DNA of 64,000 nt from Candidatus Nealsonbacteria bacterium (GCA_026396195.1 JAPLXH010000005.1:3710-67709), one strand, 5' to 3'. Counted from the first letter of the stretch, positions 8,292 to 59,304 are shown. The notes: generated from the sequence alone by a model not told the origin. Made by a program: numbers and translations.

Positions 8292-8319
8292 TTGACAGAG
8301 GTTTTTAAAAAAGTAGTAT
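8292..8319 (+). promoter_or_regulatory. candidate 16S promoter
   Basis: TTGACA (8292-8297), a 16-nt spacer, then TAGTAT (8314-8319), about 75 nt upstream of the 16S 5' end. Confidence 0.3.
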
Positions 8320-8393
8320 TGAATATACAAGAACATTAAAAATTTATTGTTGTTAATTAAGTGTTAGTGTTTTAGAGTCGTTTCGAACTCTAT

Positions 8394-9899
<1,506 letters not shown>

Positions 9900-10046
9900 A
9901 TTTTAAGTGTCGGCTATAATTGAAATCGGAAATTTGGATTTTAATTATAAGGTATTAATCGAACCGCGGAAAATTGTTTTTAACAATTCCGCGCCTGCGT
10001 GAATAGAGAGTATATTCTGCGCGGTACCTTCAAAGATCGATTGCTT

Positions 10047-10073
10047 AGTTCGAAACGACTCTAAGATACTAAC
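10047..10073 (+). other. 3' strand of the pre-16S processing stem (partner 8363-8389)
   Basis: agttcgaaacgactctaa (10047-10064) is the exact complement of ttagagtcgtttcgaact (8372-8389). Pairing extends imperfectly to 8363/10073. Confidence 0.65.
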
Positions 10074-10160
10074 TTAAAAAACAAAAGCCTTTACCCCCCT
10101 CCCTTATTATAAGGGAGGGGGTTTACAGTTTTTGTATTTTTAATTAAAATCATGTTATAA

Positions 10161-10232
10161 GGGCGTGTGGCTCAGTGGTAGAGCGCGTTCCTGATAAGAA
10201 CGAGGTCGAAGGTTCGATTCCTTCCACGCCCA
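10161..10232 (+). tRNA. tRNA-Ile(GAU)
   Basis: GGGCGTG TG GCTC AGTGGTA GAGC G CGTTC CTGATAA GAACG AGGTC GAAGG TTCGATT CCTTC CACGCCC A. Confidence 0.95.
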
Positions 10233-10353
10233 CTTATAAAAGGGCCTATAGCAAAACAGAATTTTGATATATCAAGCTTCAGCTTGCTATAGTTTAATGG
10301 CAGAACACTACATTTGTCCCGATTGGAAATCGAGGATTCCTGATAACTTTGGT

Positions 10354-10428
10354 GGGCCCGTAGTTTAGTGGTAGAACGCCTCATTTGCAATGAGGAGATT
10401 GTGGGTTCGATTCCCGCCGGGTCCACCA
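10354..10428 (+). tRNA. tRNA-Ala(UGC), CCA encoded
   Basis: GGGCCCG TA GTTT AGTGGTA GAAC G CCTCA TTTGCAA TGAGG AGATT GTGGG TTCGATT CCCGC CGGGTCC A CCA. The G3:U70 identity pair is present. Confidence 0.95.
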
Positions 10429-11031: not shown

Positions 11032-11847
11032 ATGAACAAGAAAATATCTACACCAATAGCCATAGGGATTATTTTAATCCTATCTGTTGCATTAATAATA
11101 TTTACTTATTGGCAGATTGCAGAGATAGAGAAAAATGCGAGCCAAATAATAGAAATTAAGGTTCCAGAGAAAGAAGAAATGGCGACATCAACGATAATAA
11201 CGGTAACTAATTTTGAAGAATGTGTTGCTAATGGATATCAAGTTGATAATGATACTTATTCACATTATCCTTATTCTTCCTTATGTAAGACTCCTGGCGG
11301 AGATGTGTTTATAAAAGGAATTGATAATAATAGAATATACGTTGAAAAAGAGAATGGTAAGATTGTTGCGATTAATGTAGGAGAAAAAGAATTAAAAATA
11401 AATGAGATTATTCCTAACCTTGTTGAGAAGCAGGAAATATCGGCAGGAGTTAAAGAAGAGTTAGAAAGTAAAGCAAAAGAAGACCACAAAGAATGCTCTA
11501 CCGAATATGAGAAATCTTTTATAGTAAAAATTTTTAAGATTGAATTAGATGACAATTTAGAAACAGAAGAATATGTTGTTGACTATTGGTGTGGAGGTCA
11601 GATTGAATTTTCTAATGTTTATAAGAAGATTGGGAATGAATGGAAAACAATTTTAGATGTTGGAGGATGGGTTGATAAGATTGAAAAAACGAAAATAAAC
11701 GGAATGCATAACCTTTTGATATTTGAAGAAATGGGGCTCAACAGCCCTGGAATAGAAACTCGTTATAAATGGAACTCTTTTCTTAACATATATGAAGAAG
11801 ACCAAAAATGGGATGTAATTTGGAATGTTTCAAATTTCACACAGTAA
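11032..11847 (+). CDS. secreted/anchored hypothetical protein (cassette 2)
   Basis: The N-terminus MNKKISTPIAIGIILILSV is identical to that of the 12763 gene. No known domain seen. Confidence 0.6.
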   Translation: MNKKISTPIAIGIILILSVALIIFTYWQIAEIEKNASQIIEIKVPEKEEMATSTIITVTNFEECVANGYQVDNDTYSHYPYSSLCKTPGGDVFIKGIDNNRIYVEKENGKIVAINVGEKELKINEIIPNLVEKQEISAGVKEELESKAKEDHKECSTEYEKSFIVKIFKIELDDNLETEEYVVDYWCGGQIEFSNVYKKIGNEWKTILDVGGWVDKIEKTKINGMHNLLIFEEMGLNSPGIETRYKWNSFLNIYEEDQKWDVIWNVSNFTQ

Positions 11848-11991
11848 AACAGGTTCTAACATCGTCAAATTGTCGCCAAATCTACCATATAGACCCCTCC
11901 ATTCTCCCTAATTCTGGTTCTAATGTCGTCTACGAGTCCCCGCTAAGCAAAACCTTTTTAATAGAGCGGTTTTTTGGTAGAATTAAATAAT
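11848..11991 (+). repeat. cassette-array repeat C
   Basis: aacaggttctaacat, ccattctccctaattctggttctaat, gtctacgagtccccgc (11928-11943), hairpin plus T-run, TGGTAGAAT. Confidence 0.75.
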
Positions 11992-12615
11992 ATGGAAATT
12001 AAAAATACATCAATAATTGAATGGGAAATAACGCCTTCGGAAAAAAGAGAAAGACTACAACAATTTATTTCAAAAACATGGTGGATAATTCTTTCTTTTA
12101 TTATTTTTTCTTTCTTTAGTTTCTATTCAGGATTTTGGTCTACTAAAATTCAACATGGCACTAACGCTGCTTTAAAAGAGCTTTTATTTATTGTAATTGC
12201 AGTAGCTGTAGGTATTTTACTTATATATTTCTTTAATAAGATTAATCCATATCAATTAAGAACTTTTCGTTTAGACAATGCAGGAGTTCAAATTTCTAAA
12301 GGAAAAAAGAAGAAATCTTATTCTTGGAACGAATTTGAATGTTTTTATGTTTACACAACTTACAGGGGCTATACGCCCAATAAAGAAACGGATTTAGGAA
12401 AAATATTTAAAGCAGAAGAACAAATAATGGGTGATATTTTCTATCTTAAGAAAAAACAAACAACTTTTTTGTCTAAATTATATAAAACTTTTATTGTTAT
12501 TTACTCCGAACCCAATAACCTAGGAGATATATTTAGCTTCTTAAAAGATAAACTGCCACAAAAAATAATGACAGCGACCACTGATTTTGGATTAATTTTT
12601 TATGAATTTAAATAA
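11992..12615 (+). CDS. two-TM membrane protein (cassette 3)
   Basis: ATG at 11992 lies 8 nt after TAGAAT. Two adjacent hydrophobic helices are followed by a soluble domain. Confidence 0.55.
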   Translation: MEIKNTSIIEWEITPSEKRERLQQFISKTWWIILSFIIFSFFSFYSGFWSTKIQHGTNAALKELLFIVIAVAVGILLIYFFNKINPYQLRTFRLDNAGVQISKGKKKKSYSWNEFECFYVYTTYRGYTPNKETDLGKIFKAEEQIMGDIFYLKKKQTTFLSKLYKTFIVIYSEPNNLGDIFSFLKDKLPQKIMTATTDFGLIFYEFK

Positions 12616-12762
12616 AGTAGTTCCTAACATAGTTCATTAATGGACTAAATCCATCATAAAAACCCCATTATTTTCCCTAATCCTGGTTCTAACGTTGTCT
12701 ACGAGTCCCCGCAAACAACAACCGCTTTTTAGTAAGGCGGTTTTTTGGTAGAATGAAACAAT
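12616..12762 (+). repeat. cassette-array repeat D
   Basis: agtagttcctaacat, ccccattattttccctaatcctggttctaac, gtctacgagtccccgc (12697-12712), hairpin plus T-run, TGGTAGAAT. Confidence 0.75.
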
Positions 12763-13899
12763 ATGAATAAAAAAATATCTACACCAATAGCAATTGGTAT
12801 TATATTAATCTTATCTGTTCTTTTGGGCGGTTTTACCTTGTGGCAATGTTCAGAGATACAGAAAGAGAAAATTGAACCAACATTATTAGAGAATAAAGAG
12901 CAAACAACAGATTTGAAAGAAACGGCACAAAATCTTTTTAGTGATTATTTAGATAAATATAAAAATACAGATACGACCCTTAATGACAGAATTAAAAGTT
13001 ATATAATTAATGATATTAAAATAGATATGACCGAAGACGATTGTTTTGGATTTACTGTTAATTATTCAGTTGAGACCCTTAAAGACCAAAATAATAATTT
13101 AACTAATTGGGTGGCTGGTAATGGTAAAGAGGATGGCAATTGGGTTAAAAATAAACAAGAATTTGTAGATGCAATTAAAGAAAATGGGAATTATAAAATT
13201 AGAGAAATGGGAACGGGCAGAGGTTCAATAAGTTGTATGGGTGAGCAAGACGAAACCGCTGATTGGAAGACTTATAGTAATGAGGAGTATGGGTTTGAGA
13301 TAAAGTATCCCGAAAAGTGGCCTATAGACGAGGATTATAATAACGAGAATTATTACGCTAATGTTACCATTAGAGAGCAAAATGGTGAAGGTAAAATGGT
13401 TGACTTATATATTTATAATAATCCCAATAATTTATCTCTTACTCAATGGCTTGATTTTTATGACCAAAATATATGCGGTTCCGTTGGAGAAAGAAAACCA
13501 ATTTCAATTGCTGGTGTTGAAGGAATTAAAGGCGCACATTACTGCGGCGATTCTTATTTAGAGGGAATTTTTTTATTAAAGGAAAATAAAGTTTATAATA
13601 TCAATTTTCTGTGGGGTGGGATGGAAGAAACCGTAGGACCTATCAAAGATGAAGAAGGAATTTATAACCAAATGCTTTCTACTTTTAAGTTTATTGAAGA
13701 AACTACTGATAATATGAAAAATTGTGAAATTGATTCAGATTGCGTTGGTTCGGCTTGCTGTCACCCTGATTCATGCATTAATAAAGCATATAGAGGAGTG
13801 TGCAATGTGTTCTGTACTCAAAGTTGTGAAGGACCGTTAGATTGCGAAAAGGGAAATTGTGCGTGTGTTAATAACAAATGTGTAATAATAGCTAAATAA
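12763..13899 (+). CDS. secreted/anchored protein with Cys-rich C-terminus (cassette 4)
   Basis: Same 19-aa N-terminus as the 11032 gene. The C-terminal 60 aa contain 14 Cys (CEIDSDCVGSACCHPDSC...CACVNNKC). Confidence 0.6.
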   Translation: MNKKISTPIAIGIILILSVLLGGFTLWQCSEIQKEKIEPTLLENKEQTTDLKETAQNLFSDYLDKYKNTDTTLNDRIKSYIINDIKIDMTEDDCFGFTVNYSVETLKDQNNNLTNWVAGNGKEDGNWVKNKQEFVDAIKENGNYKIREMGTGRGSISCMGEQDETADWKTYSNEEYGFEIKYPEKWPIDEDYNNENYYANVTIREQNGEGKMVDLYIYNNPNNLSLTQWLDFYDQNICGSVGERKPISIAGVEGIKGAHYCGDSYLEGIFLLKENKVYNINFLWGGMEETVGPIKDEEGIYNQMLSTFKFIEETTDNMKNCEIDSDCVGSACCHPDSCINKAYRGVCNVFCTQSCEGPLDCEKGNCACVNNKCVIIAK

Positions 13900-33584: not shown

Positions 33585-33875
33585 TCATCCATTTATCTTA
33601 TTATATACTTTTTCGTCAACCCAGTAGTATGGTCCTTTTGGATATCCCGGATGACTCTTGAGGTCTGTAATACCAAACTTGGCAAACAGTCTGCTCCTAA
33701 TTTGGTCCCGCGGAAGACTTGATAACTCTTGGATTTCGGCCTCGGTCAGTTTAACAGAACCAATCTCAGTTTCCTCGCTATGGTTTTCCCGGGAAAGTGC
33801 AATAGTTTTATCAAGATGTCTTACTCCGTCTCTTTCTCCATCTGCGTTTTCTTTCTCGAATAAATACAATTTCAT
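33585..33875 (-). CDS. hypothetical 96-aa protein
   Basis: ORF with GGAGG 7 nt upstream of the ATG and its own GC-rich terminator. Confidence 0.55.
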   Translation of the reverse strand: MKLYLFEKENADGERDGVRHLDKTIALSRENHSEETEIGSVKLTEAEIQELSSLPRDQIRSRLFAKFGITDLKSHPGYPKGPYYWVDEKVYNKING

Positions 33876-34033
33876 TTTCTTGCCTCCTTTTTTAATAAGC
33901 CATTTCCACCCTACCTCTATTTTCGCTTAATTTCAAATAAAAAATCGCCCTATAAGCGATGAACGTATAATTTGCAATCTATATTTTGCACGACATATTG
34001 CATAAAGAATCGCCATTTAGGCGGTTTTTTGGT

Positions 34034-34080
34034 TTGACAAATTAGTGATTTAGAGTAAAAAGATAGAGGAGGTTGAAATA
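34034..34080 (+). promoter_or_regulatory. conserved promoter/SD module (TTGACA-16-TAAAAA-GATAGAGGAGG)
   Basis: TTGACA 34034-34039, TAAAAA 34056-34061, AGGAGG 34067-34072, TTG start 34081. Near-identical modules occur at 36738-36786 and 62376-62424. Confidence 0.6.
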
Positions 34081-35022
34081 TTGAAAGGAATAAAGATTTT
34101 TTCAGGAAAGTCTCATCGGAAATTAGCAAAAAGAATTTGTCGGCAATTAGAGGTTCCGTTAAGCCCTTTGAAAATTGAGGAATATGGTAATGGATGTTCT
34201 GAAGTAATTTTAGAGAAATATGTTCGCAACAAAATCGTCTTCTTGATTCAGACATCTTCACCCAAAAATTTATCTAAACATCTATTGCAGCTTTTACTGA
34301 TGACTGAAACTGTTTCAGAATGTGGTGCTAAAAAAATAATCGTAATAATGCCTTATGTTTCCTATTCTCGTTCCGACAAGAAGCACAAGAAGTGTCGTAA
34401 TAAAATGATTATCGCTGGAAAGTGGTTAATAAGGGCTTTGGAGAAAAACGGAATGAATAAATTCATCGGAATTGATTTTCATTCAAAGAGGTTCGAGAAG
34501 TTTTTCTCCCCAGAAACAGAAGTTCATCATCTTTCCGCTTTGCCTTTAATTGTTAAAGCTCTGGAAAAAAAGAACCTTAACCCTGAAAGTACTATCATAT
34601 TAGCTCCCGATAAAGGAGCTTGTAAAAAGACTTCCCATTTGGCAAAAGAACTAAAAATACCGTTTGGTTGGGTTGAGAAAAAAAGAATAAGCGATACTAA
34701 GGTTGAAATAGAGAAGATACACGGTGAAGTCGCTGGCAAAGATGTCATTGTTTTAGATGACGAGATTTCTACTGGAGGCACCATTAAAACTTTAGCCGAT
34801 AAACTTACAAAACTGAAAGCGAGAAGTTTAACTATTGCAGTTACTCATGGCCTTTTCTTAGGAAAAGCACTCAAGAATTTTCAAAAGATTAAAATACTAA
34901 AAAAAATCATAGTTACTGATACTGTTCCCATTTCAAAAAAAGTCAAACGCCATTTGCCATTGGAGATTCTGCCTATAGACGAACTTTTAGCTGAAAAAAT
35001 AAAAGAAATTTGTAAAAATTAG
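34081..35022 (+). CDS. prs: ribose-phosphate pyrophosphokinase-like (divergent PRPP synthetase)
   Basis: IKIFSGKSHRKLAKRIC, PYVSYSRSDKK (compare PYxGYARQDRK) and VIVLDDEISTGGTIKT (PRPP loop). TTG start. Confidence 0.65.
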   Translation: MKGIKIFSGKSHRKLAKRICRQLEVPLSPLKIEEYGNGCSEVILEKYVRNKIVFLIQTSSPKNLSKHLLQLLLMTETVSECGAKKIIVIMPYVSYSRSDKKHKKCRNKMIIAGKWLIRALEKNGMNKFIGIDFHSKRFEKFFSPETEVHHLSALPLIVKALEKKNLNPESTIILAPDKGACKKTSHLAKELKIPFGWVEKKRISDTKVEIEKIHGEVAGKDVIVLDDEISTGGTIKTLADKLTKLKARSLTIAVTHGLFLGKALKNFQKIKILKKIIVTDTVPISKKVKRHLPLEILPIDELLAEKIKEICKN

Positions 35023-35113
35023 AGGGGATATTTTTTAAACATCCTCTTTTTTATTTTAAATTATTGTTTGACTTTTTAACCTATATTTTATAAATTTAAT
35101 AAAGAAAAACGAT

Positions 35114-35184
35114 GGGGGCATAGTTCAACGGTAGAATAATGGTCTCCAAAACCATTGATCTCTGTTCGAATCAGAGTGCCCCCG
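35114..35184 (+). tRNA. tRNA-Trp(CCA)
   Basis: GGGGGCA TA GTTC AACGGTA GAAT A ATGGT CTCCAAA ACCAT TGAT CTCTG TTCGAAT CAGAG TGCCCCC G. Confidence 0.95.
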
Positions 35185-35324
35185 CCTTCGCTTCGCCGAA
35201 GCTTTAGCGTAGGCGAGCTTCGTCTCAGCTACGGCGAGGCAAGCCCGCCAACAAAAATATCCGAAATTTTTTCGGGTTTTTTGTTATTATGCTATAATAA
35301 ATAAAAATAATTTACAAAAATTTT

Positions 35325-36731
35325 ATGTCATTTGTCTATACGGGAATCGGCGTTTCCCAAAAAGATAATTTAATAGAAGCTGCCAAAGAAGCAGCCGAAC
35401 AAGCAAAAAAAGAATTGGGAGAAGGAAAAATCCCAAAGCTTTTAATGTTTTTTTGTATTTTTACCTATCCTATAAAAGAATATAAAAAAGCAATAGAAAC
35501 CGTGTATGGCGTTTTCGGCGATAAAGAGGTCCCTTTAGTCGGAGGCAGTGTTATAGGTTTTTTTGCCAAGGATAAATATTATTTCGACGTAAAAATGGTT
35601 GGCAGGATTGTCGGTTCTATGATACAAGGATTGGGCAAAGTTTTTAAACCGTTTAAATTTAACGGAGTTGGTGTGGTGGCTTTGTCTTCAGATTATTTAA
35701 GCATAGGAACAGGAATAGGTTTGGATGTAGATAAAAACCCTGAAAAAGCCGGTAAAGATTCAATTACTCAGGCCTTAGATAATTTGCAATATAATCCCTC
35801 GGTTGCTTATCTGGCAATGTTAAAAAAAGGCGCTCGGGACCTTACCAAATTTCGGCCAATAAATGGATTTTTGCTGACTCCCGGGTTTTTTCCGAAGGGT
35901 AAAGCCAATACTCTCTTTGATAATCAAATTCTTTCCGGAATAACTTCAATAACCAAGAGAAATGTCAGGTTGGCTGGCGGAGGATTGTGCTCCGAATTTG
36001 TGGTTGATCCAAATCATGTTTTAATATCTCCTGGAAGTGTTTTTTTTAACCACGAAGTTTATCAAAACGCCGTGACATCTATTGTTTTCGGTTCTGATTT
36101 AGAAATCGGATACGGAACCGCTGCCGGAGCTAATCCTTTGGGAGTATCCGTGGTTATTACCAAAGGGGAAGGGTATGTAATTGAAGAATTAAATGGAAAA
36201 CCGGCCGTGTCTTTTTTGGCAGAGATAGTCGGAAAATATACTGATATTAAAAAAGAAACTTTTTTAAACAATCCTTGGATTTTAGCTTTCAAAGGAATTT
36301 ATATGGCTCTTCCCGAGCCTTTAGGGGACTTTTATTGGCCCGTAGTTATAGCCGGCCGGGATGGAGAGAAGATAAAAACAGTTGTCCCTATTAGAAATGG
36401 ATTAGCTTTAAATTTGATAAAAACAGCAGGTAAGTCTGCCGAAGAAGCGCCAAGCCAAGCTACTAAAATGATGATTGAAGACGCTCAGTCTGAAAATTTT
36501 GAATTTGTTTTATTTTCTTCTTGCGCTGGCCGGGGTTCTGTTTTAGGCAAGAAATATTTCCAAGAGATAGAAGGAATTAAAAAAGTTTTAAATAATAAAG
36601 AAACTCCGATTTTCGGCCTTTGTTCTTGCGGGGAACAGGCTTTTTATAAATTAGGACAGGTAGTTGGCACGGCCGGTATTTTTACTTTAATGGGCATTTC
36701 CAATCGTCTTGTTTCTGAAACTAAAGAATAA
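35325..36731 (+). CDS. FIST-domain (FIST_N + FIST_C) sensory protein
   Basis: N-terminal pattern GVSQKDN...PKLLMFFC...PLVGGSV. C-terminal FVLFSSCAGRG...PIFGLCSCGEQ is typical of FIST_C. Confidence 0.6.
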   Translation: MSFVYTGIGVSQKDNLIEAAKEAAEQAKKELGEGKIPKLLMFFCIFTYPIKEYKKAIETVYGVFGDKEVPLVGGSVIGFFAKDKYYFDVKMVGRIVGSMIQGLGKVFKPFKFNGVGVVALSSDYLSIGTGIGLDVDKNPEKAGKDSITQALDNLQYNPSVAYLAMLKKGARDLTKFRPINGFLLTPGFFPKGKANTLFDNQILSGITSITKRNVRLAGGGLCSEFVVDPNHVLISPGSVFFNHEVYQNAVTSIVFGSDLEIGYGTAAGANPLGVSVVITKGEGYVIEELNGKPAVSFLAEIVGKYTDIKKETFLNNPWILAFKGIYMALPEPLGDFYWPVVIAGRDGEKIKTVVPIRNGLALNLIKTAGKSAEEAPSQATKMMIEDAQSENFEFVLFSSCAGRGSVLGKKYFQEIEGIKKVLNNKETPIFGLCSCGEQAFYKLGQVVGTAGIFTLMGISNRLVSETKE

Positions 36732-36783
36732 ATTTTATTGACTAAATTATTAATTTAGAATAAAAAGATGGAGGAGGGTTGAA

Positions 36784-37104
36784 ATGAGTCCTTTAAAAGA
36801 TGAAAATACTGATAAATCCCAAAAGCTAAAAGCAGAAGATTATTGCGTTGAATTTAGAATCCTGGCAAAAATTTACGAATACACAGAAATCAAGAAAAAA
36901 CCAATTTGGTTTTCAAGGTTGGTTTATTGTTTCAGGGGAAAGATTTTTAGAAACGAAATATCTAAAGCAGAAGACAGATTATATCATTGGGGCATAATTG
37001 ATAAAAAGTATAAAGACGCAGAGGGTTTGTGGACGTGTTGTTATCTTATTGAAGACGAAGCAGTGGATTTTGCAAGAATGCTTTACGAGAAAATAAATTT
37101 ATGA
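36784..37104 (+). CDS. hypothetical 106-aa protein, possibly winged-helix-like
   Basis: ORF with a strong SD (GGAGGAGGG). The wHTH guess is based only on length and charge pattern. Confidence 0.4.
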   Translation: MSPLKDENTDKSQKLKAEDYCVEFRILAKIYEYTEIKKKPIWFSRLVYCFRGKIFRNEISKAEDRLYHWGIIDKKYKDAEGLWTCCYLIEDEAVDFARMLYEKINL

Positions 37105-37234
37105 AAATTTTCTCGTTTTTTTATTGACAAATAATGTTTTTTAGAGATAATTAAAAAAGGAGGAAAACTCTTTTTTTAATTGGAGTTAGTACTTTTAAAT
37201 AAAAAAAACATGGAAAGAAAAGGAAGGTGAAAAA

Positions 37235-38056
37235 ATGAGTGGAAAAATGAACGCGAAAGATAGGCTGATTTTAGCTTTAGACCCCAATAGAGAAGAAATA
37301 AAAAAATGGATGAGAACGGAGCCGACAAATAAGGTTAAAGAAAAAATAAGAGAAAAAGTAGTTTCTATTCTGGACGAGCTGGAAGGAGAAGTTGGTTTTG
37401 TGAAGGTAAACTATGTTTCCAGCATGGTTCCTGATATTATTGATATCATTCAGCAAAGGAAAATTGGTGTTTGGCTGGACGGAAAATACAAAGACATTCC
37501 AGGAACTGTTGAAGGATGGACAATGGGTGCAATTCTGAACAACGTAGATAAAATAACAATTCACGCTGACGGTGGATTAAAAATGATTCAGTACGCAACA
37601 GAAATAGCAAAAATAACGAAAGAAATAAAACAGTTTCGAGACATTGAAATTTTTGCAATCAGCGTTTTAACCAGCATTGGCCCTGAAGTTCTTAGTAACG
37701 AACTGAAAATACCCGGAAATCTTATGAATAAAGTTATGGTATATGCCAAATTAGCTGAAAAAGGAGGAGTGGATGGAGTTGTGGCCTCTGCTATGGAATC
37801 GCCCGTTTTAGCAAGAAAATTAAAATCAGGAATGCACATTATTACACCAGCGATAACACCAAACTGGGCAATAAAAAGGGATGATCAAAATAAATCTAGA
37901 ATTACTACTCCTTACCAAGCAATAATCAGCGGATCAACTAAAATTGTAGTAGGCAGCGCCATTATTGATGCTGAAACATACGGAAAAACGAGAATTGAAG
38001 CAGCTCAAGCCATTGTAGCTGAAATTGATCAAGCCTTGACCAGCAGGAATTTCTAG
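37235..38056 (+). CDS. pyrF: orotidine-5'-phosphate decarboxylase family
   Basis: LILALDP, WLDGKYKDIPGTV (D-x-K-x-x-D-I) and DDQNKSRITTPYQAIISGSTKIVVGSAI (DQxR...TP...G). Confidence 0.75.
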   Translation: MSGKMNAKDRLILALDPNREEIKKWMRTEPTNKVKEKIREKVVSILDELEGEVGFVKVNYVSSMVPDIIDIIQQRKIGVWLDGKYKDIPGTVEGWTMGAILNNVDKITIHADGGLKMIQYATEIAKITKEIKQFRDIEIFAISVLTSIGPEVLSNELKIPGNLMNKVMVYAKLAEKGGVDGVVASAMESPVLARKLKSGMHIITPAITPNWAIKRDDQNKSRITTPYQAIISGSTKIVVGSAIIDAETYGKTRIEAAQAIVAEIDQALTSRNF

Positions 38057-38069
38057 GGAGGAATTTTTG

Positions 38070-38741
38070 ATGACACCAGTCACCAATAGTGAAGATAAAA
38101 TTTTAGAACCTTTTAAAAAATATGATGCTATCTGGTTGCACGACGGTAATTCTAAAAATCCTCACGCCGAATTGACCACAGGAAAATGCAGTAACGCTTA
38201 CTTTAATTGTCGTAGAGTTCTAAAAGATCCATTCGCCAATTTTAATTTAGCCAGAGAACTGGTTCTGCAATTAAAGCAAAAAGGAATAGAAAACATTGAT
38301 TGGGTTATAGGCTCTCCGATGTCGGCAATAACTTTTTCTTACGAAGTAGCTAAGGGGTTTGAAGCTTTTCACGGTTTTACCGAGAAAGATCCTCTTGATC
38401 CCAAGAAAATGGTTTGGAAAAGTGAAACCATCCCAGAGGGTTCTAATGTTCTACAGATTGAAGAATTAATTACAACGAGTCATACTTTCAAAGAAGTTCG
38501 TCGGGCTATCCTAGAAGGAAACCTAGAAAAAATCAATCTTCTGCCAATAATCGGAACTATTATTCATCGTCCGCCAAAACTCCCCGTGGAATACGAAATC
38601 AATGGTCAGAAAATTGAAATCGTGGCTTTGTTTGAAAAAGAAGTTTGGGCAATAGATCCTTTAGAATGTCCTTTATGCAAGCTTGGTTCTGTCCCTTATC
38701 CTCCGAAAAGTCATTGGAAAGAGTTAATCGGAAAAAAATAA
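38070..38741 (+). CDS. pyrE: orotate phosphoribosyltransferase-like type I PRTase
   Basis: HAELTTGKCSNAYFNC (compare HFxLSSGxHSxxY), VLQIEELITTSHT PRPP-binding loop. Directly follows pyrF, with GGGAGG overlapping its stop codon. Confidence 0.65.
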   Translation: MTPVTNSEDKILEPFKKYDAIWLHDGNSKNPHAELTTGKCSNAYFNCRRVLKDPFANFNLARELVLQLKQKGIENIDWVIGSPMSAITFSYEVAKGFEAFHGFTEKDPLDPKKMVWKSETIPEGSNVLQIEELITTSHTFKEVRRAILEGNLEKINLLPIIGTIIHRPPKLPVEYEINGQKIEIVALFEKEVWAIDPLECPLCKLGSVPYPPKSHWKELIGKK

Positions 38742-38752
38742 CCAAAATATAA

Positions 38753-38782
38753 CCCACTGGAACTATTTCAGTGGGATTTTTT
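38753..38782 (+). terminator. intrinsic terminator after pyrF-pyrE
   Basis: cccactg-gaactattt-cagtggg followed by atttttt. Confidence 0.7.
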
Positions 38783-38846
38783 ATTATTCGTGATTTGCTT
38801 GACTTTTTATATTTAGATGTTAAAATATTAAAAGGAGGTTAGTACA

Positions 38847-39608
38847 TTGTCAAATATAAATGATAAAACTTTAAATCAGAACGATACAGAAAATAATTTT
38901 AGAAAAAGATTGATCACTTTCGCTGTTTTATTAATCCCAATAGGATTTCTTTTTTTGATTATTATTCCGTCTTTTTTTTCAAAATATTTTCCTTTTTTAA
39001 CGAGTTTTGCTTTAATTTTTTTAGCTTGGCAATGCGTTAAAGAAATTGGGAAAATAGAAAAAGGCAGAAATCAAGAAAAGTTATCCTTGCTGTCAATTTT
39101 TTTCGCGATATATATATTTATCGCCCTAGGCATGTATTCCTATTTGATATTCAGCGAGAACGGGTTTTTGTGGCTTATAGTTGCAATTATTGGCGTCGCT
39201 TTTTTTGATTCGTTCTCTTATCTGATAGGAAAAACTGTGCGATTTTTTATGAATTTTTTATTCCTGAAAAAATTTATTAAAAAACAAATAAAAATTCATA
39301 AAATGGTTCCGACTATTTCTCCCAAGAAAACTTGGGAAGGAGCAGTAGGAGGCTTTATCGCTTGCTTAATAGCCGTTGGCATATCGGGGAAATTACTTCT
39401 TTTATTGGATTTTTGGCAGATAATAATTACAGGAACTTTTATCGCCGTGCTTGCTTTTCTAGGCGATTTATTCGAATCGTTTTATAAAAGAAAAATGGAA
39501 ATAAAAGATTCGGGAAGTGTTTTACCGGGCCACGGTGGTTTACTCGACAGAATCGACAGCGCCTTATTGGTTATTTTTGGGATCATTCTTTTAAAGCTGA
39601 TTTTCTGA
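38847..39608 (+). CDS. cdsA: phosphatidate cytidylyltransferase family (CdsA-like)
   Basis: SPKKTWEGAVGG, FESFYKRKMEIKDSG and PGHGGLLDRIDS signature blocks. TTG start after AAAGGAGG. Confidence 0.8.
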   Translation: MSNINDKTLNQNDTENNFRKRLITFAVLLIPIGFLFLIIIPSFFSKYFPFLTSFALIFLAWQCVKEIGKIEKGRNQEKLSLLSIFFAIYIFIALGMYSYLIFSENGFLWLIVAIIGVAFFDSFSYLIGKTVRFFMNFLFLKKFIKKQIKIHKMVPTISPKKTWEGAVGGFIACLIAVGISGKLLLLLDFWQIIITGTFIAVLAFLGDLFESFYKRKMEIKDSGSVLPGHGGLLDRIDSALLVIFGIILLKLIF

Positions 39609-48268: not shown

Positions 48269-48421
48269 TTGACAAGTTAATATAGTTTTATATATAATGG
48301 CATTATCCCGTAGACAGCAGGCTCTGCGACAAGCTCATAAGACCTGCCGAGGAAAAAGAATATATGTTTTTATTCTATTTTTCGTCTGCGGAGAGCAGAC
48401 TTTTTGATTTATAAAAAAAAC
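48269..48421 (+). promoter_or_regulatory. rplJL promoter and leader with terminator-like hairpin (putative L10 autoregulatory leader)
   Basis: TTGACA (48269-48274), 16 nt, TATAAT (48291-48296). The leader has CAGCAGG/CCTGC pairing and GTCTGC-ggaga-GCAGAC+TTTTT (48384-48405), just before the ATG at 48422. Confidence 0.45.
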
Positions 48422-48940
48422 ATGCCAATCACAAAAAAACAAAAACAAGAAATTATTGAGGACTTAAAAGAAAAAATCAAACAGCAAAAAACGATTATTT
48501 TTGTTGATTTTAAGGGACTGAAAGTAAAAGATGTTTTTGATTTCAGGAAAAAGTTAAGAAAAGTGAATTCTTTATTTAAGGTATCTAAAAAGACCTTATT
48601 TAGAATAGCCCTTAAAGACCTGGACTCGGCTTTGTCCGAGAAGGTTGAGAAGTTGGAAGGACAAATAGGGCTTATTTTCGGCTTTAAAGATGAAATTTCA
48701 GCGGCAAAAGTTGCTTATAATTTTGCCAAAGAAAAAGAAAATCTTAAAATATTGGGAGGTTTTTTTGAAGGAAAAATTATTGATAAGGAAACGATTGCGG
48801 AATTAGCTAAAATTCCGGGCAAAGAAGAGTTGTTGGGCAGGTTGGTCGGAGCTATTGCAGCTCCCATTACTAATTTTGCTTGTGTTTTACAAGGAAACAT
48901 TAAAGGTCTGATTTGCGTGTTAAGCGCAATTAAAAAATAA
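48422..48940 (+). CDS. rplJ: 50S ribosomal protein L10
   Basis: [35 protein letters not shown]. Followed by rplL. Confidence 0.9.
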
Positions 48941-48951
48941 TTAAAAAAAAT

Positions 48952-49407
48952 ATGACAGAAGAAAAAAAATCCGCCCCCGCTGAAGCTACGGCGGAAAAGG
49001 AAGAAAAAATAAATGTTCCCGAAAAGTTTAAAAGCTTGGTAAAAGAGATAGAAACTCTTTCGGTTTTGGACTTGGCGGAACTGGTAAAAGTTTTAGAGAA
49101 AAAATTTGGCGTTTCAGCAGCTCCTCAGATTATAGCTGCCCAGCCAACAGCTGCCGGAAGTGCAGAATCCTCAGGCGCATCAGAAAAATCAATTTTTACC
49201 ATAGAGTTGAAAGAAGTGGGAGTAAAAAAGATAGAAGTGATTAAAGCAATCAGAGATATTACCCAGAAAGGATTGAAAGAAGCCAAAGACTTGGTTGATG
49301 CCGCCGAAAAAGCAGCTCAGGTGGTGAAAGAAAACGTCAAGAAAGAAGAAGCCGAAGAAATTAAGAAAAAATTAGAAACTGCCGGAGCAAAAGTTGAACT
49401 TAAATAA
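48952..49407 (+). CDS. rplL: 50S ribosomal protein L7/L12 with ~25-aa N-terminal extension
   Basis: [19 protein letters not shown] and [24 protein letters not shown]. Confidence 0.9.
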
Positions 49408-52751: not shown

Positions 52752-53639
52752 TTGTTTAAAAAATTAAAAGAAATAGCTGAAGGAAGAACCGATTTGTTAA
52801 CCATCAGATGTTCAAATGCTTGGCTGGAAAGAAATCCGGAACCTACTATTTTCGTGGAATTAAACGACGAGATGGAAGTTTTAATATCCTCTCGAGATCG
52901 AAGAGAGCATTTCAAAACCGCTTCCCCTTGGTTGGCTGAACAGCTTGAGAAGTGGAGGAACTCTGACGTCCAAAAAATAACAGTAGCTACCAAAGAATAT
53001 CCCCTTGAGATCTTTGCCGGCGACACCGCTTTAATTTTGGTAATCGAAGGCAAAAGATATCTTTACAGCGCCCATAGAGATATTTACCCGAAAGGCTGGT
53101 TGCTTCCCGGCGGTTGTTCCAGGTCCAGAGAAGAGTTATTGAATCCGAGAATCCTTATGTCCCGGGAATGCGCCGAAGAGGTGTTGATTACAGATCAGGA
53201 AGGAAAAATCTATAATTTTTCCAATTCAATCAACGAAATGATGGAAAACGTTAAGGCCTGGCAGAAAGAGGGATCATTAACTCCGGGAAATATGATTCCG
53301 TTATCAGTCAAAGAGTTGTCACTGGCCAAAGGCGATGTCCGCAATATAGTAATAAGATTAAACGGGCAAGAATCAAAAATAGAAAACATTGCAGTGACGA
53401 TTGATGCTAAAATAGCCGAGGTGAGTACCTGTATTTATTTGGAAGCAGTTCTTCCCATCAAACTTAACGAATTAAGACTTTTCGATGGTGAGAAATTGCC
53501 CGACAAGACTCTTTTGAATCGGCCCATAAAGCTGACTGATGAACAAGGTGATTGTCCGGCTCTGTTTTCGCGGGGAAACAATCTTTTTATCTCTGGCTGG
53601 GTTACTCCGGCAACAGCAGAAAAAGCATTTGTTTTCTGA
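52752..53639 (+). CDS. hypothetical protein with a weak Nudix-box-like segment (TTG start)
   Basis: LPGGCSRSREELLNPRILMSRECAEEVLI loosely fits Gx5Ex7REUxEExGU, with a 3-residue insertion. Strong SD (TAGGAGG). Confidence 0.45.
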   Translation: MFKKLKEIAEGRTDLLTIRCSNAWLERNPEPTIFVELNDEMEVLISSRDRREHFKTASPWLAEQLEKWRNSDVQKITVATKEYPLEIFAGDTALILVIEGKRYLYSAHRDIYPKGWLLPGGCSRSREELLNPRILMSRECAEEVLITDQEGKIYNFSNSINEMMENVKAWQKEGSLTPGNMIPLSVKELSLAKGDVRNIVIRLNGQESKIENIAVTIDAKIAEVSTCIYLEAVLPIKLNELRLFDGEKLPDKTLLNRPIKLTDEQGDCPALFSRGNNLFISGWVTPATAEKAFVF

Positions 53640-53718
53640 CATAAATAATAAAAAACAAGAGAGGTGGTTCAATTAAAATCATCTCTTTTTCTTTTATATT
53701 AATAAACATGTATCTCTA

Positions 53719-54038
53719 TTGACAAATTATATTTGAAATGTTATAATCAAGACGTCTTGTGATTGTTAAAACTTCACAGGATAAGCCTTAGGTCGATGCA
53801 GGCCCTGTGCCAAAGTCGACCGAAACAGGCTTTTCTTTCATTCAATAAACAATTTTTTTGTTGGTTGAAAGAAGAGTCAGCAGTTCCTTTAAATAATAAA
53901 AAGAGAAGGAATAGTAGAAGAGAAACGGGGTTTTTCTTCTTTGGAAAACAACGATTCGGGCGGAATTAAAAGGCCTACCCGATGAGGCGAAAAAAAGTGA
54001 ATTTTTAGAAAGAACGAAAAGAAAAGGAGCGCGAAAGA
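53719..54038 (+). promoter_or_regulatory. consensus promoter plus ~285-nt structured leader
   Basis: TTGACA (53719-53724), 17 nt, TATAAT (53742-53747). Leader stems: AAGCCT/AGGCTT (53783-53788 with 53827-53832), GGTCGA/TCGACC (53791-53796 with 53816-53821), TTCCTT/AAGGAA (53884-53889 with 53906-53911). Confidence 0.5.
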
Positions 54039-55244
54039 ATGAATGGATTAGACAACGAAAGTGTTATCGTAGGGACGCACACAAATCCGGATTTGGATGC
54101 CGATGCGGGGATCTGGTTTTTTTTCGAAGCCAATCCACAAATTAAAAACAAACATCAGGTGATGTTTTTAAAGGGTGGAGACGAGAAGTTGGATAAACTG
54201 GGAAACGTGGTTTTAATCGACCGCGGACAAGGAGAACTAGACCATCATCAGTTAAGGTTCCAAGAAACTGCCGCCAGCATGGTAGCTAAGAAGTTCGGTC
54301 TTGATAAAGACCCGATCAATCAGAAATTTCTGGAAATAGTCAAAGCGAATGATCTTCGGGGAGAAACTAAAATTCTTTCCATAGGCGATATCATAAAAAG
54401 ATTAGCGCACAATAATAGCCTTGCCGATGAAGAAAAACTAAAAATAGGGCTTAGACTAATCGATGATGCAATGGAATTTCAGAGAAAAAACTTGGCCAGA
54501 GACCATCAGTTTGCAAAAGAATTGTATCAAGACTTTAAAAGATACGATTTCCTCGGTTATGAGGTAAGACGGTATTTCGAGCGACAAAACGAAAAGTTCC
54601 AACGACCTTTTGATCTGGTAGAAATTTTGACTGCTGAAAAGGCAATCAGAGGTAAAGAAGAAGCCGTAAAGTTCGCCAAAGAATTGATTCACTTAATCTC
54701 AAAAAGTGAAAGTGACTTCCAGAAAGCGCTGCAGGAACTTGAAAGGGCTTGGATTATCTTCCTTGGTAAAAAAGATTTTTTTATCGCGGGAGAATCTGAT
54801 AATCCGGCTTTTAATAAAGCAGCCAGATCCAAAGGAGCAATACTCGCTATCCAGAAAAGCGAAGAAGGATGTCAAATATACTTTGATTTCAGAAAGGTCT
54901 CGCCGGAAGAAGCTGATATGATCATGGCAATTATCCGTCTGCTGGAACAGGTTTATCAAAAGAAAAAGATTTTAATAACCGACTTTTTCGTCCTGAGCGA
55001 GCGGGGAAAACTCAAGGAAATACCGGAATGGTATTACTTTGTCTCTAATGATAAAAATGGCGGAAGATTTATTCTTAATAAATCTCTTACCGCTACCGAC
55101 TCAGAAGAGATACCTGAGACAAAAATTCCACTGGAAAAAATAGTGGAAGTCGTGAAACTGGTATTGACCCTCGGTGAGAATTTCAGCTTCAAAGTATTCG
55201 TCCATAAAACGCTTCTAGGATATTCGTCCCTAAAGAATCAATAA
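54039..55244 (+). CDS. DHH-family-like phosphoesterase
   Basis: VGTHTNPDLDADAG (motif I-like DxD) and IDRGQGELDHHQL (DHH). The rest is unassigned. Confidence 0.45.
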   Translation: MNGLDNESVIVGTHTNPDLDADAGIWFFFEANPQIKNKHQVMFLKGGDEKLDKLGNVVLIDRGQGELDHHQLRFQETAASMVAKKFGLDKDPINQKFLEIVKANDLRGETKILSIGDIIKRLAHNNSLADEEKLKIGLRLIDDAMEFQRKNLARDHQFAKELYQDFKRYDFLGYEVRRYFERQNEKFQRPFDLVEILTAEKAIRGKEEAVKFAKELIHLISKSESDFQKALQELERAWIIFLGKKDFFIAGESDNPAFNKAARSKGAILAIQKSEEGCQIYFDFRKVSPEEADMIMAIIRLLEQVYQKKKILITDFFVLSERGKLKEIPEWYYFVSNDKNGGRFILNKSLTATDSEEIPETKIPLEKIVEVVKLVLTLGENFSFKVFVHKTLLGYSSLKNQ

Positions 55245-55338
55245 ACGTCTCTCAATAAAACTCTCTATCCTTCTCTTTTTTCTTTTTTTAAAAACAAAAC
55301 CTATAAGGTTTTTTTTGTTTTTTAAACGTACCGTTTAA

Positions 55339-55365
55339 TTAGCACTCTTGACAAGCGAGTGATAA
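55339..55365 (+). promoter_or_regulatory. CIRCE operator (HrcA binding site) overlapping the hrcA promoter
   Basis: TTAGCACTC-ttgacaagc-GAGTGATAA has one mismatch to TTAGCACTC-N9-GAGTGCTAA. The spacer contains TTGACA. Confidence 0.85.
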
Positions 55366-55383
55366 TCTATAAAATGGAGATAT

Positions 55384-56109
55384 ATGAAAATGACCAAGCG
55401 CCAGGAAAAAATTTTAAACGGCATAATTAAGGAATACATCCATTTAGCTGTCCCTGTCAGCTCGCAGGTTTTAGACGAGAAGTATAATTTTAATCTTTCT
55501 ACAGCTACCCTTAGAAACGAGATGCAGGCCTTAAGTGATTTGGGATATCTTTTACAGCCCCACACTTCAGCCGGCCGGATTCCGACCGACAAGGGTTACA
55601 GATTTTTTGTTAACCAAATTTTTGAAAAAGGGCTTCCCGAATTTGACGAAAAAAAGAAAATGGATATTGAGAGGGAGTGCAAAGGAAAAAAAGACAACTC
55701 TTTTAGGTTCGTCCAGAAAGCGACAAAAATAATGGCTGACAACTCTTCAAATCTGGCCCTAAGTTATATTTTAAACGAAGATTTTTTTTGGAAAGAGGGC
55801 TGGGACGATGTTTTTGCGGAACCGGAATTTAAGGAAACCGATTTTGTGCTGAGGTTTACCAAAATAATAGATTCTTTTGAGAGAAACATTGAAGGCATAA
55901 CTTCTAACTTTTCCGATGAATTGGGTGTTTTTATCGGAAGAGAAACGCCTTTTTTGAAAAATGATGATTTCAGCATCGTGGTTTCTGGGTTTCGGTTCCC
56001 TGACTCAAAAAACAAGGGAATATTCGCCATTGTTGGCCCCAAACGGATGAATTATAATAAAAACATTTCCATTATTAATTTAGTTAACCAAATTTTTAAG
56101 GAATTATAA
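55384..56109 (+). CDS. hrcA: heat-inducible transcription repressor HrcA (short, 241 aa)
   Basis: LTKRQEKILNGIIKEYI...VSSQVL...STATLRNEMQALSDLGYLLQPHTSAGRIPTDKGYRFFV. Confidence 0.85.
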   Translation: MKMTKRQEKILNGIIKEYIHLAVPVSSQVLDEKYNFNLSTATLRNEMQALSDLGYLLQPHTSAGRIPTDKGYRFFVNQIFEKGLPEFDEKKKMDIERECKGKKDNSFRFVQKATKIMADNSSNLALSYILNEDFFWKEGWDDVFAEPEFKETDFVLRFTKIIDSFERNIEGITSNFSDELGVFIGRETPFLKNDDFSIVVSGFRFPDSKNKGIFAIVGPKRMNYNKNISIINLVNQIFKEL

Positions 56110-56113
56110 AAAT

Positions 56114-56671
56114 ATGGATAAACAAAGAAACAAAAAGTTAGTTTTTGGTGAAAGTAAAACGGAGGAGCCCTCCTTCGCTAAAGCTACGGCGGGCGAGGAA
56201 AAAAAAGATTCTGAGGATTTAAAGAAACAGATGGAAGAATGCGAGAAAAAAAGAGACGATTATTTGAAGGGCTGGCAGCGCTCTCAGGCTGATTTCATAA
56301 ACTATAAGAAAGAGGAAATCGCCAGAATGAAAGAAATTTTAAAATACGGCGGCGCGGAACTGATTTTGACTTTTCTTCCGATATTGGACAACTTTGAGAA
56401 AGCGGAAAAAGAAACACCTAAAGACTTTCAGGATAACCAGTATTTTAAGGGCCTTTTACAGATAAAAAAACAAATACAGGACTTTTTGAAAAATCAGGGA
56501 ATAAAAGAAATAGAATCAGTCGGAAAGAAAGTGGACCTGAACCTTCATGAAATCGTAGGCGAGGTGGAAATGAAAGACAAGGAATCAGGCACTATAATAG
56601 AAGAAACGCAAAAAGGTTATTTATTCGAAGATAAATTATTGCGAGTCGCTAAGGTCAAAACAATCAAATAA
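56114..56671 (+). CDS. grpE: nucleotide exchange factor GrpE
   Basis: YLKGWQRSQADFINYKKE and the C-terminal beta domain GYLFEDKLLRVAKV. Confidence 0.9.
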   Translation: MDKQRNKKLVFGESKTEEPSFAKATAGEEKKDSEDLKKQMEECEKKRDDYLKGWQRSQADFINYKKEEIARMKEILKYGGAELILTFLPILDNFEKAEKETPKDFQDNQYFKGLLQIKKQIQDFLKNQGIKEIESVGKKVDLNLHEIVGEVEMKDKESGTIIEETQKGYLFEDKLLRVAKVKTIK

Positions 56672-56703
56672 TATAATATAAATAAATCTAATTAAACAAA
56701 ACC

Positions 56704-58572
56704 ATGCCAAAAATAATAGGTATCGATCTGGGAACAACTTATTCGGCCGTGGCCGCGATAGAAAATGGCGAGCCGAAAATCATTGAAAATCACGAAGGCG
56801 CCAGAACAACCCCTTCGGTGGTTTCAATTGCTAAAAACGGCGAAAGACTGGTCGGAGTGACTGCCAAACGCCAGCAAATTACAAATCCCAGAAACACGAT
56901 TTATTCAATTAAGAGATTAATCGGCCGAAAGTATTCAGACCCTGAAGTTCAACGGGACAAAAAACTCCTGCCTTATGAAATCAGGAAATCAACTGACGAC
57001 GAAGGAGTAGATGTAAAAATGGGAGACAAGTGGTACAAACCCGCCGAGATTTCAGCGATGATTTTACAAAAAATAAAAAGAGACGCCGAAGAAAAATTGG
57101 GAGACAAAGTTGAGGAAGCCATCATTACCTGTCCGGCTTATTTTGACGATTCCCAGAGAAAAGCCACTAAAGTGGCCGGAGAAATCGCCGGATTTAAAGT
57201 CAGACGGGTTATCAACGAACCGACAGCCGCTGCTTTGGCTTACGGTTTAAGCAAAAAGAAAAACGAACAGATAGTGGTTTATGATTTTGGCGGAGGTACT
57301 TTTGATATTTCCATTTTGAACGTGGGCGGAGACACGATAGAAGTTATCGCCACCGGCGGAGACACTCATTTGGGCGGAGACGACTTTGACCAGAAAATAA
57401 TGGACTGGCTGGTTGACCAATTTAAAAAAGACAACGGCATTGACTTATCTAAAGATGAACTGGCCTTGCAGAGATTAAAAGAAGCTTCCGAGAAAGCCAA
57501 AATAGAATTGTCTACTACCATGGAAACGGAAATTAATCTTCCTTTCGTTACTTCTGATGCTGCCGGCCCCAAACACCTTTATTACAAAATGACCAGAGCT
57601 CAGCTTGAAAACTTGGTTAAAAATTATATTGATAGGTCAATTGAGTTAATGACAAGAACTCTTATTGAGGAAGCAAAAATGAAAACCTCGGAAATAGAAG
57701 AAATAGTTTTAGTGGGTGGCCAGACCAGAATGCCGAAAATCAGGGAAGAAGTAAAGAAATTTTTCGGAAAAGAACCCTATATAGACATTAACCCCGATGA
57801 AGTCGTGGCAGTTGGCGCTGCCGTGGAAGCTGGAATTTTGCAGGGCGAGGTGAGAGATGTTTTGCTTTTGGACGTTACTCCTTTATCTTTGGGAATTGAA
57901 ACTTTGGGAAGCGTGAACACGGTTTTAATTCAAAAAAACACCACTGTTCCCACCGCTAAAACTCAGACTTTTTCCACCGCTGCCGATAACCAGACCTCGG
58001 TTGAAATTCATGTTTTACAGGGCGAACGGCCAATGGCAAAAGATAACAAAACTCTTGGCAGGTTTATGCTGGACGGCATTCCGCCTTCACCAAGAGGACT
58101 TCCTCAGATTGAGGTTGTTTTTGACATTGATGCCAACGGCATTTTAAACGTTTCTGCTAAAGACAAAGCCACCGGCAAGGCCCAATCAATCAGGATTGAA
58201 AGTTCAATTGGCATCTCAAAAGATGAAATTGAAAAAATGAAAAGAGAAGCGGAATTGCACGCTGAAGAAGACAAAAAGAAACAGGAATTAATCGGGTTGA
58301 AAAACCAGGCCGATAATATAATTTATGTTTCTGAAAAAACCTTAAGGGAAAATAAAGACAAGGTTTCTTCCGAGATAGCCAAAGAAATTCAGGAAAAAGT
58401 TGATGACTTGAAAAAAATTAAAGACGGAGAGGACGCCGCTGCAATAAATGATAAAATTTCAAATTTATCCCAGGCCATTCAGAAAATCGGCGCTGAAATG
58501 TATAAAAAAGCTCCGGACCAAAAACCCGAAGAGAAAAAAGGACCTGAAGAGGGACAGTATAAAGAAAAATAG
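56704..58572 (+). CDS. dnaK: molecular chaperone DnaK
   Basis: [22 protein letters not shown] and [10 protein letters not shown]. Confidence 0.97.
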
Positions 58573-58780
58573 AGTGTTCGGAAATTAATTTTTATGGACA
58601 CGCTCGTTCGCTAATACTCGCTAACGAAATCTTAAAGCATCGATTCTCAAAATCCCAGCGAGATTTTGGAATCTGCGTTCTCGTCTCGCTACCGCGTTTG
58701 ACGCGGACCATGCTGGCGAGACTCCGAAAGCTGCTTTAAGATTTATTAGCTCGCCTTTTTTACTCAGGAGAACAAAAAAT

Positions 58781-59245: not shown

Positions 59246-59304
59246 AAACGTTTCGGAAAATAAAAAAGTGTCTCGTAGAGAGACACACATTGATTGATAG
59301 ATAA

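Follow-up and report, generated by a model that had tools for sequence, protein, structure and literature searches.

The 16S rRNA gene described here raises the question whether the ribosome it serves has no canonical anti-Shine-Dalgarno (anti-SD) sequence or whether its mature 3' end is formed in an unusual way, the two possibilities that the initial annotation had left standing side by side, and what role may be played by the long structured trailer that follows the gene. The gene lies on a stretch of 64,000 nt, which as a whole is referred to as the window. The organism belongs to the Parcubacteria: the prs protein (34081-35022) has a 100% identical counterpart in a Candidatus Nealsonbacteria MAG, and an identical prs gene is present in SRR20698647; a lineage lookup places the Nealsonbacteria in the Parcubacteria group of the CPR, and the 16S genes most similar to this one come from Paceibacterota MAGs. 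Loss of the anti-SD is among the rarest changes of bacterial ribosomes, and the Parcubacteria are the largest group showing such a loss. What has been published on the anti-SD of this group amounts, in the available parts of the source, to a motif count (Tsurumaki, 2022; PMC9297842). The present locus together with about 80 relatives shows a stepwise degradation of the anti-SD. The features of the locus are collected in Table 1.

Table 1. Features of the 16S rRNA locus and of other regions of the window; positions are counted from the first nucleotide of the window.
Feature	Position	Strand	Basis or remark
Sigma-70-like promoter TTGACA-16-TAGTAT	8292-8319	+	Consensus scan, 10/12 matches, pattern match alone
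Processing stem, 5' strand	8363-8389	+	Inverted repeat, 27 nt, 93% Watson-Crick
16S rRNA gene	8395-9899	+	Rfam RF00177, 1366.6 bits (gathering score 50), model 1-1533
GUCGAC, loop of shortened helix h26	9217-9222	+	Invariant in the clade, self-complementary, equals trailer box consensus
A/U-only tail, decayed remnant of CCUCCUUU...	9892-9906	+	Decay series in relatives
Trailer box GUGUCGGC	9907-9914	+	Clade consensus (A/U)GUGUCGAC
Hairpin P1	9915-9949	+	MFE and centroid fold
Pseudoknot stem A, 5' strand AAGGUA	9949-9954	+	Pairs with 10025-10030; covariation
Pseudoknot stem B, 5' strand UAAUCGA	9956-9962	+	Pairs with 10037-10043; covariation
62-nt insertion, junction loop (H1 9965-9993, H2 9995-10024)	9963-10024	+	Fold
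Pseudoknot stem A, 3' strand UACCUU	10025-10030	+	Covariation
Pseudoknot stem B, 3' strand UCGAUUG	10037-10043	+	3 nt ahead of the processing stem
Processing stem, 3' strand	10047-10073	+	Inverted repeat partner of 8363-8389
Perfect G+C-rich hairpin (10094-10121) followed by UUUACAGUUUUUG, terminator-like	10094-10134	+	Sequence
tRNA-Ile(GAT)	10161-10233	+	ARAGORN
tRNA-Ala(TGC)	10354-10428	+	ARAGORN
SD-led genes	prs 34081, cdsA 38847, pyrF 37235, pyrE-like 38067		
SD-led small unknown ORFs	33585(-), 36784, 52752, 60933, 62422, 63642		
L10 leader (RF00557) and rplJ-rplL	48290-49407		Rfam / gene order

Alignment of the 3' end to RF00177 left GGAUCA (9886-9891) and helix 45 intact and placed AUUAUUUA (9892-9899) at the anti-SD positions, where the model has CCUCCUUu; the stretch GGAUcACCUCCUUu of the model thereby stands opposite GGAUCAAUUAUUUA of the window. 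Where bacteria normally read GGAUCA-CCUCCUUA, this gene reads GGAUCA-AUUAUUUA, and the single-stranded anti-SD tail of the RF00177 type, GAUCACCUCCUUA, is absent from the gene, though GGAUCA is present. A search for CCTCC between 8300 and 10500 found a single occurrence, at 10098, and none earlier, which bears out the initial observation that no such sequence precedes the 3' strand of the processing stem. The gene encodes a small-subunit RNA without a canonical anti-SD. An rRNA intervening sequence or intron was considered and rejected, as the Rfam model stops at 9899 and the rest of the stretch enclosed by the stem contains neither 16S-like nor CCUCC-like sequence.

The state of this tail was compared with that of relatives from two sets of loci. 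An exact-pattern scan of species-representative genomes yielded 120 16S loci, and metagenome contigs scanned with a clade-specific 16S word yielded 120 further loci, the nearest of which (L168) is merely 85.6% identical to the window in 16S. In the species-representative scan Campylobacterota and many CPR phyla retain GGAUCACCUCCUU, and CACCTCCTT is retained in CPR outside the Paceibacterota as well as in Campylobacterota; CCUCC-less tails are common among loci titled Paceibacterota, Patescibacteria or similar. Among 78 distinct related trailers, 77 have no CCUCC in the tail. The tails can be arranged in a series that begins with CCUCCUUU (L181, L153 and L012), continues with UCUCCUUU (L165, L166, L159 and L056) and the later states CUACAUUU, CCACAUUU and CUCAAUUU, and ends in AUUAUUU and UUUAUUU. 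Judged from these tails, a graded series of this kind is expected where selection is relaxed and A+T pressure acts. The CCUCC of the present gene was lost through mutational decay, as in most of the clade.

An earlier survey, in its available parts, reported that the CCTCCT motif was detected in only 48% of Parcubacteria 16S sequences, that the lineages without anti-SD overlap the group lacking uL1, and that helix h26, a contact site of the SD helix, shows unusual conservation in Parcubacteria (Tsurumaki, 2022; RNA 28:1041; PMC9297842). The loss itself was thus already known from that source, and the present gene adds a new member to a group for which this trait is established. The published loss, the intermediate decay states and the A-rich, G-poor leaders of most window genes (see below) all speak for the first of the two possibilities, a ribosome without canonical anti-SD. 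In the window, rplJ-rplL (48404-49407) is preceded by PAS and DJ-1/PfpI genes and not by rplK-rplA within the 64 kb visible, a context that fits the uL1-lacking Parcubacteria and is no proof of membership.

Two further features of 16S 3' regions were observed among the relatives. In another anti-SD-less group of Parcubacteria (L005, L006, L010, L011, L026, L035, L039, L055 and others), the hairpin that normally masks the anti-SD, CUCCUUUCUAGGGAG, is replaced by UUCAAUUUGAA, UCCAAUUGGA, CUCAAAUUGAG or GUCAAGUGAC; compensatory changes there keep the hairpin while the CCUCC sequence disappears. In addition, many relatives (L203, L210, L216, L134, L184, L219, L152, L139, L156, L238, L223 and L012) carry an insertion ending ...AGAUAUAGUCCAUGC...CAUG right before AACAAGG (around 16S position 1506), of which the window has none. 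Its motif resembles the P7/P3 core of group I introns.

For most genes of the window the composition of the leaders (50% A, 13.5% G) fits SD-independent initiation. The paradox of the locus is that a subset of genes carries AGGAGGU boxes though the visible 16S cannot pair with them. Counted on both strands of the whole window, 8 of 25 AGGAGG hexamers lie 5-18 nt before one of the 61 gene starts, where 0.11 would be expected (p ~4e-13). Perfect AGGAGG(U) boxes are found on about 15% of the window genes. Some ten genes in the regions 33585-39608 and 52752-63998 have such a box 6-9 nt before the start, several of them with TTG starts, and neighbouring housekeeping genes are without it. Genomic islands found no support as the source of these genes: the GC content is uniform across the window, prs, cdsA and pyrF are interspersed with hrcA-grpE-dnaK-dnaJ, and the closest prs homologues come from CPR. 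The prs orthologues examined in other CPR also carry a G-rich box. A separate observation concerns three consecutive ORFs at 11032-13899 (271, 213 and 378 aa), which share the motif GGCGGTTTTTTGGTAGAAT 8-9 nt before the ATG; two of them have no Pfam match and the third has a weak PsbP-like match.

Taken over all anti-SD-less loci, 82 SD-like sequences occurred at a spacing of 4-10 nt as compared to 55 and 49 at control spacings. Around the 16S loci of CCUCC-bearing CPR, too, strong SD signals were all but absent, and three crude comparisons of SD usage between anti-SD-bearing and anti-SD-less loci gave no discrimination; the tests that proved informative were the positional ones within the window and the profile of spacings. 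Literature searches found no paper on SD usage in Patescibacteria. In view of the AGGAGG hexamers placed before gene starts and of the G-rich box of the prs orthologues, SD recognition may persist in part. The enrichment of AGGAGG(U) before some genes, together with the fact that the visible part of the genome comprises 64 kb, could be accommodated by a canonical anti-SD from another source, either a second rrs copy ending in CCUCC or an intervening sequence whose removal would bring GGAUCA together with a CCUCC downstream. We regard this as very improbable. CPR genomes usually have one rRNA copy, and the near-absence of CCUCC from the tails of the related trailers would have to be explained as well. 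The initial annotation had also considered an unusual formation of the mature 3' end; one that restores CCUCC found no support, as nothing 16S-like resumes past the trailer, and CCTCC downstream of the stem is not conserved, being present in just 5 of 76 relatives and there within terminator stems of unrelated sequence. The weak SD signal, moreover, is the same in other anti-SD-less relatives. The preferred reading therefore remains that of a ribosome whose 16S gene has no canonical anti-SD.

What follows the decayed tail is enclosed by a long leader-trailer duplex. The inverted repeat proposed initially was recovered at the same position and forms a stem of 27 bp with 25 Watson-Crick and 2 G-U pairs. 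Of the spacings attributed to it, the 3' trailer of about 150 nt holds, as about 147 nt (9900-10046) separate the 16S gene from the 3' strand of the stem; the 5' leader was put at about 10 nt, and only 5 nt (8390-8394) separate the 5' strand from the start of the Rfam 16S match. A long, near-perfect duplex bracketing the 16S in this manner is of the RNase III type, and it is kept in the 36 relatives for which the leader was available; a gene for RNase III was found in a related CPR contig (L241). In the distinct related trailers, the 5' strand ends at a median of 15 nt ahead of AGAGUUUGAUC. The core UUAGAGU(C/U)G of the 5' strand and the consensus CAACUCUAAGAAAC of the 3' strand are conserved in relatives, so that both strands, GUUUCUUAGAGUUG... 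and ...CAACUCUAAGAAAC, are kept in sequence beyond what pairing demands, which suggests that the stem may be recognized in a sequence-specific way.

The promoter-like site lies about 45 nt upstream of the stem. Downstream, the G+C-rich hairpin and its tail UUUACAGUUUUUG resemble a terminator; a strict terminator scan made no call there, and a T-run occurs within 170 nt after the stem in 68 of 78 relatives. The classic tRNAs of the 16S-23S spacer, tRNA-Ile and tRNA-Ala, follow the 16S gene without a 23S gene: no LSU rRNA was found in the window by Rfam, and protein genes begin at 11032. The terminator-like hairpin and a promoter-like site at 10122-10150 lie between the 16S gene and the tRNAs, and the operon is hence unlinked. 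By its sequence signals, the 16S gene appears to be a stand-alone transcription unit with its own promoter-like site and terminator-like hairpin.

The trailer itself folds at -41 kcal/mol as compared to -31.7 +/- 3.8 kcal/mol in shuffles (z = -2.4). The initial annotation had treated it as one structured stretch of about 150 nt, and a conserved module and a 62-nt insertion went unrecognized there; the trailer hairpin that it named, CGCGGAAAATTGTT...AACAATTCCGCG, is present and corresponds to H1 of the insertion. The junction between the 5' strand of stem B and the 3' strand of stem A measures 0-3 nt in relatives and 62 nt in the window. One relative (L199) has a smaller hairpin at the insertion site and the nearest relative (L168) has none. 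The insertion is, as far as these sequences tell, lineage-specific, and it is the reason why the trailer is about 150 nt long here and about 95 nt in relatives.

Two observations on recurring sequences were made in passing. The inserted hairpin CGCGGAAAAUU...AAUUCCGCG (9965-9993) has a near look-alike at 4139-4161 of L096, which also lies in a 16S trailer but before the pseudoknot; the idea that H1 is a repeated mobile element was dropped, as the window contains it just once and, apart from the L096 look-alike, the other 245 loci do not have it. In L165 the same 37-nt pseudoknot sequence occurs at 8732-8768 and at 10110-10146, and the 1.38 kb from one copy to the other contain coding-like sequence. 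This repeat may have arisen by an insertion into the trailer with target duplication.

Comparison by eye of 14 relatives gave a constant order of elements, in which the A/U tail and the box are followed by hairpin P1, then by an H-type pseudoknot and finally by the 3' strand of the processing stem, with the pseudoknot laid out as A5'(AGGUG)-UU-B5'-N-A3'(UACCU)-UAAAG-B3'. A covariance model was built for stem B only, from four seed sequences of equal geometry, and extended to ten. It found 62 matches in 100 metagenome loci outside the training set; at the corresponding place in anti-SD-bearing CPR phyla or Campylobacterota it found none. Covariation was then determined on 54 distinct sequences, none of which had been used in model building. 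Paired cells amounted to 85% as compared to 69% in shuffles, and 12 of the 14 pairs of the pseudoknot alignment showed double changes. The covariation score was 0.516 as compared to 0.218 in shuffles, a value reached by none of 500 shuffles, and controls with a slid partner scored 0.06-0.20. Stem A, which was outside the search model, had changes on both sides in 5 of 6 pairs, with exchanges of GC to AU and of UA to CG or AU among the relatives, and stem B had double changes in 7 of 8 pairs. With the order A5'-B5'-A3'-B3' and compensatory changes in both stems, the structure is an H-type pseudoknot. The conservation, covariation and geometry of the module are thus direct observations.

The geometry is kept across the clade. 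In the 78 distinct trailers the pseudoknot starts at a median of 58 nt after GGAUCA, and in 54 of them the box lies 38-40 nt upstream of it. The hairpin equivalent to P1 has a median of 13 bp and folds at -5 kcal/mol or lower in 70 of 78 relatives. The processing stem begins 0-5 nt past stem B in relatives, and since the two helices adjoin they can stack. Both the GG/CC core of stem A, present in 45-48 of 54 sequences, and the pseudoknot loops GUU and UAAAG are conserved in sequence beyond the needs of pairing, which hints that the module may have a specific partner. Since generic pseudoknot finding suffers from a high background when the DNA is AT-rich, it was used with shuffle controls only. 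In half of the other anti-SD-less Parcubacteria a pseudoknot-like fold at the corresponding place beat the shuffles (p <= 0.05), as compared to 11% of the CCUCC-bearing CPR and 17% of Campylobacterota; the order of elements, judged by eye, was identical in these other anti-SD-less Parcubacteria. The module thus appears to be widespread in Parcubacteria. Rfam gave no family for the trailer, only sub-threshold chance matches for the window and for the insertion-free L094 trailer, and literature searches found no paper on a Parcubacteria rRNA pseudoknot; going by Rfam and the searchable literature, the box-hairpin-pseudoknot element appears to be undescribed.

These results also bear on the two anti-SD-like strings that had been pointed out near the stem. 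The string ACCTTC does lie at 10026-10031, as described; an anti-SD-like role for it does not hold, as it belongs to the 3' strand of stem A, and this strand varies together with its partner (GGGC/GCCC, AGACG/CGUCU, AGGA/UCCU and AAGU/ACUU in relatives). Covariation of this kind marks the strand as part of a structure, with no fixed sequence to be recognized. The second string, CCTCCC, is indeed located in the hairpin 10094-10121 outside the stem (CCTCC at 10098-10102), and here, too, the anti-SD role was rejected: the hairpin is a terminator-like stem whose sequences are unrelated among relatives. It may still be asked whether the ACCU(U/C) strand of stem A (10025-10030) is a relocated, masked anti-SD that is freed for AGGAGGU boxes. 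ACCUUC can pair with GGAGGU through five Watson-Crick pairs and one G-U pair, the GG/CC core is well kept, and a minority of the window genes still has canonical SD boxes. We nevertheless give this proposal hardly any credence, as the strand changes with its partner instead of being fixed, has just 4 nt in common clade-wide, and lies 134 nt past GGAUCA in the window, and as one relative (L012) possesses a true anti-SD in addition to the pseudoknot.

This relative is informative for the role of the module as a whole. L012 has the canonical tail GGAUCACCUCCUUUC together with box, P1 and pseudoknot; the module must therefore predate the loss of the anti-SD, and in L012 at least it should lie beyond the free 3' end. 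The module, furthermore, adjoins the long stem, and both mature ends are close by. On these comparisons we consider it probable, as the most economical explanation, that the module serves as an element of pre-rRNA processing or assembly and is discarded on maturation. According to this proposal, the module would fold the trailer into a fixed shape beside the long stem, and the folded module might help to position or time nucleases, e.g., RNase III acting on the stem and an endonuclease making the last 3' cut, or an assembly factor; it would then be lost together with the trailer. Organisms of this kind are mostly without Era, according to a review. What counts against the discard of the module is that a stable pseudoknot would be an odd feature of an RNA bound for degradation, and that the stem A core and the loops keep their sequence more strictly than pairing demands. 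An element at the exact site of 16S 3'-end formation would offer a handle on rRNA maturation in small genomes.

Conservation and covariation as seen here are typical of functional RNAs, the loop sequences are conserved, and a pseudoknot would withstand exonucleases. All this would suit a separate functional RNA cut from the precursor, either one that binds a protein or ligand or an sRNA similar to those from a 3'ETS. This explanation appears quite improbable to us, as the element is always found in one place, flush with the processing stem, matches no Rfam family and occurs in a context that points to no target or ligand.

A further possibility is that the module stays on the mature 30S subunit and extends its 16S rRNA at the 3' end, by about 150 nt here and by about 95 nt in relatives, with the box pairing with the loop of h26 and replacing the SD/anti-SD helix. 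The box and the h26 loop share AGUGUCGAC; AGUGUCG(A/G)C is common to the regions 9217-9222 and 9907-9914, and as the GUCGAC core is palindromic the two could pair. Most box variants are wobble-compatible with GUCGAC (C3U, A5G and C6U, about 34 cases, as compared to 5 disrupting transitions). Position 1 of the loop and position 6 of the box are associated (Fisher p = 4e-5, uncorrected for phylogeny): with A in the loop, the box has U in 20 and C in 5 sequences, and with G in the loop, U in 12 and C in 31. Such an association would fit a contact beside the SD cleft, be it in the precursor or in a retained extension, and the unusual conservation of h26 and its contact with the SD helix, reported in the available parts of the survey mentioned above (Tsurumaki, 2022; PMC9297842), point in the same direction. 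However, the association may merely reflect two clades and hence shared ancestry, the box also occurs in L012 and in the anti-SD-bearing CPR L021, L024 and L031, which are expected to have a free CCUCC end, and the long stem and terminator resemble an ordinary RNase III precursor. Retention of the module is therefore unlikely in our view, albeit with some real chance of being right. It is likewise an unlikely proposition, derived from the same sequence comparisons, that a retained module with its box-h26 pairing would be an rRNA-encoded stand-in for the SD/anti-SD helix, in which ACCU might serve the genes that kept AGGAGGU (roughly 15%) as a masked mini-anti-SD. Retention on the ribosome would make the module an rRNA extension of a new kind, located at the mRNA-binding platform.

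With a processing or assembly element as the preferred reading, the locus can be set beside several known systems. It resembles the anti-SD-less Parcubacteria of the earlier survey in that CCUCCU is missing from an otherwise normal 16S, in its Parcubacteria lineage, here Nealsonbacteria, and in the conserved h26; the available parts of that survey differ in reporting only the detection rate of the motif (48%) and the overlap with uL1 loss, and contain no description of trailer, pseudoknot, decay series or persistent SD boxes (Tsurumaki, 2022; PMC9297842). The A-rich, G-poor leaders on most genes and the restriction of SD boxes to a minority are shared with Bacteroidota, in which, however, CCUCC is encoded and masked by protein, whereas the present gene does not encode it. 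Eukaryotic 18S rRNA (ending ...GGAUCAUUA) and mitochondrial 12S rRNA likewise keep GGAUCA and have no CCUCC, and a structured ITS1 or trailer takes part in the formation of their 3' ends. The likeness to these RNAs is one of analogy only, as the structures downstream are not homologous, and in eukaryotes the nuclease is Nob1. As in the pre-16S rRNA of Escherichia coli and Bacillus subtilis, a long leader-trailer duplex brackets the 16S and a promoter, here a promoter-like site, lies upstream. The RNase III cuts in E. coli leave about 115 nt on the 5' side and 33 nt on the 3' side; here, in contrast, the stem encloses about 5 nt of leader and 95-150 nt of trailer. The unit described here further differs from both systems in the conserved pseudoknot on its 3' side, and it ends in a terminator-like hairpin with the 23S gene unlinked.
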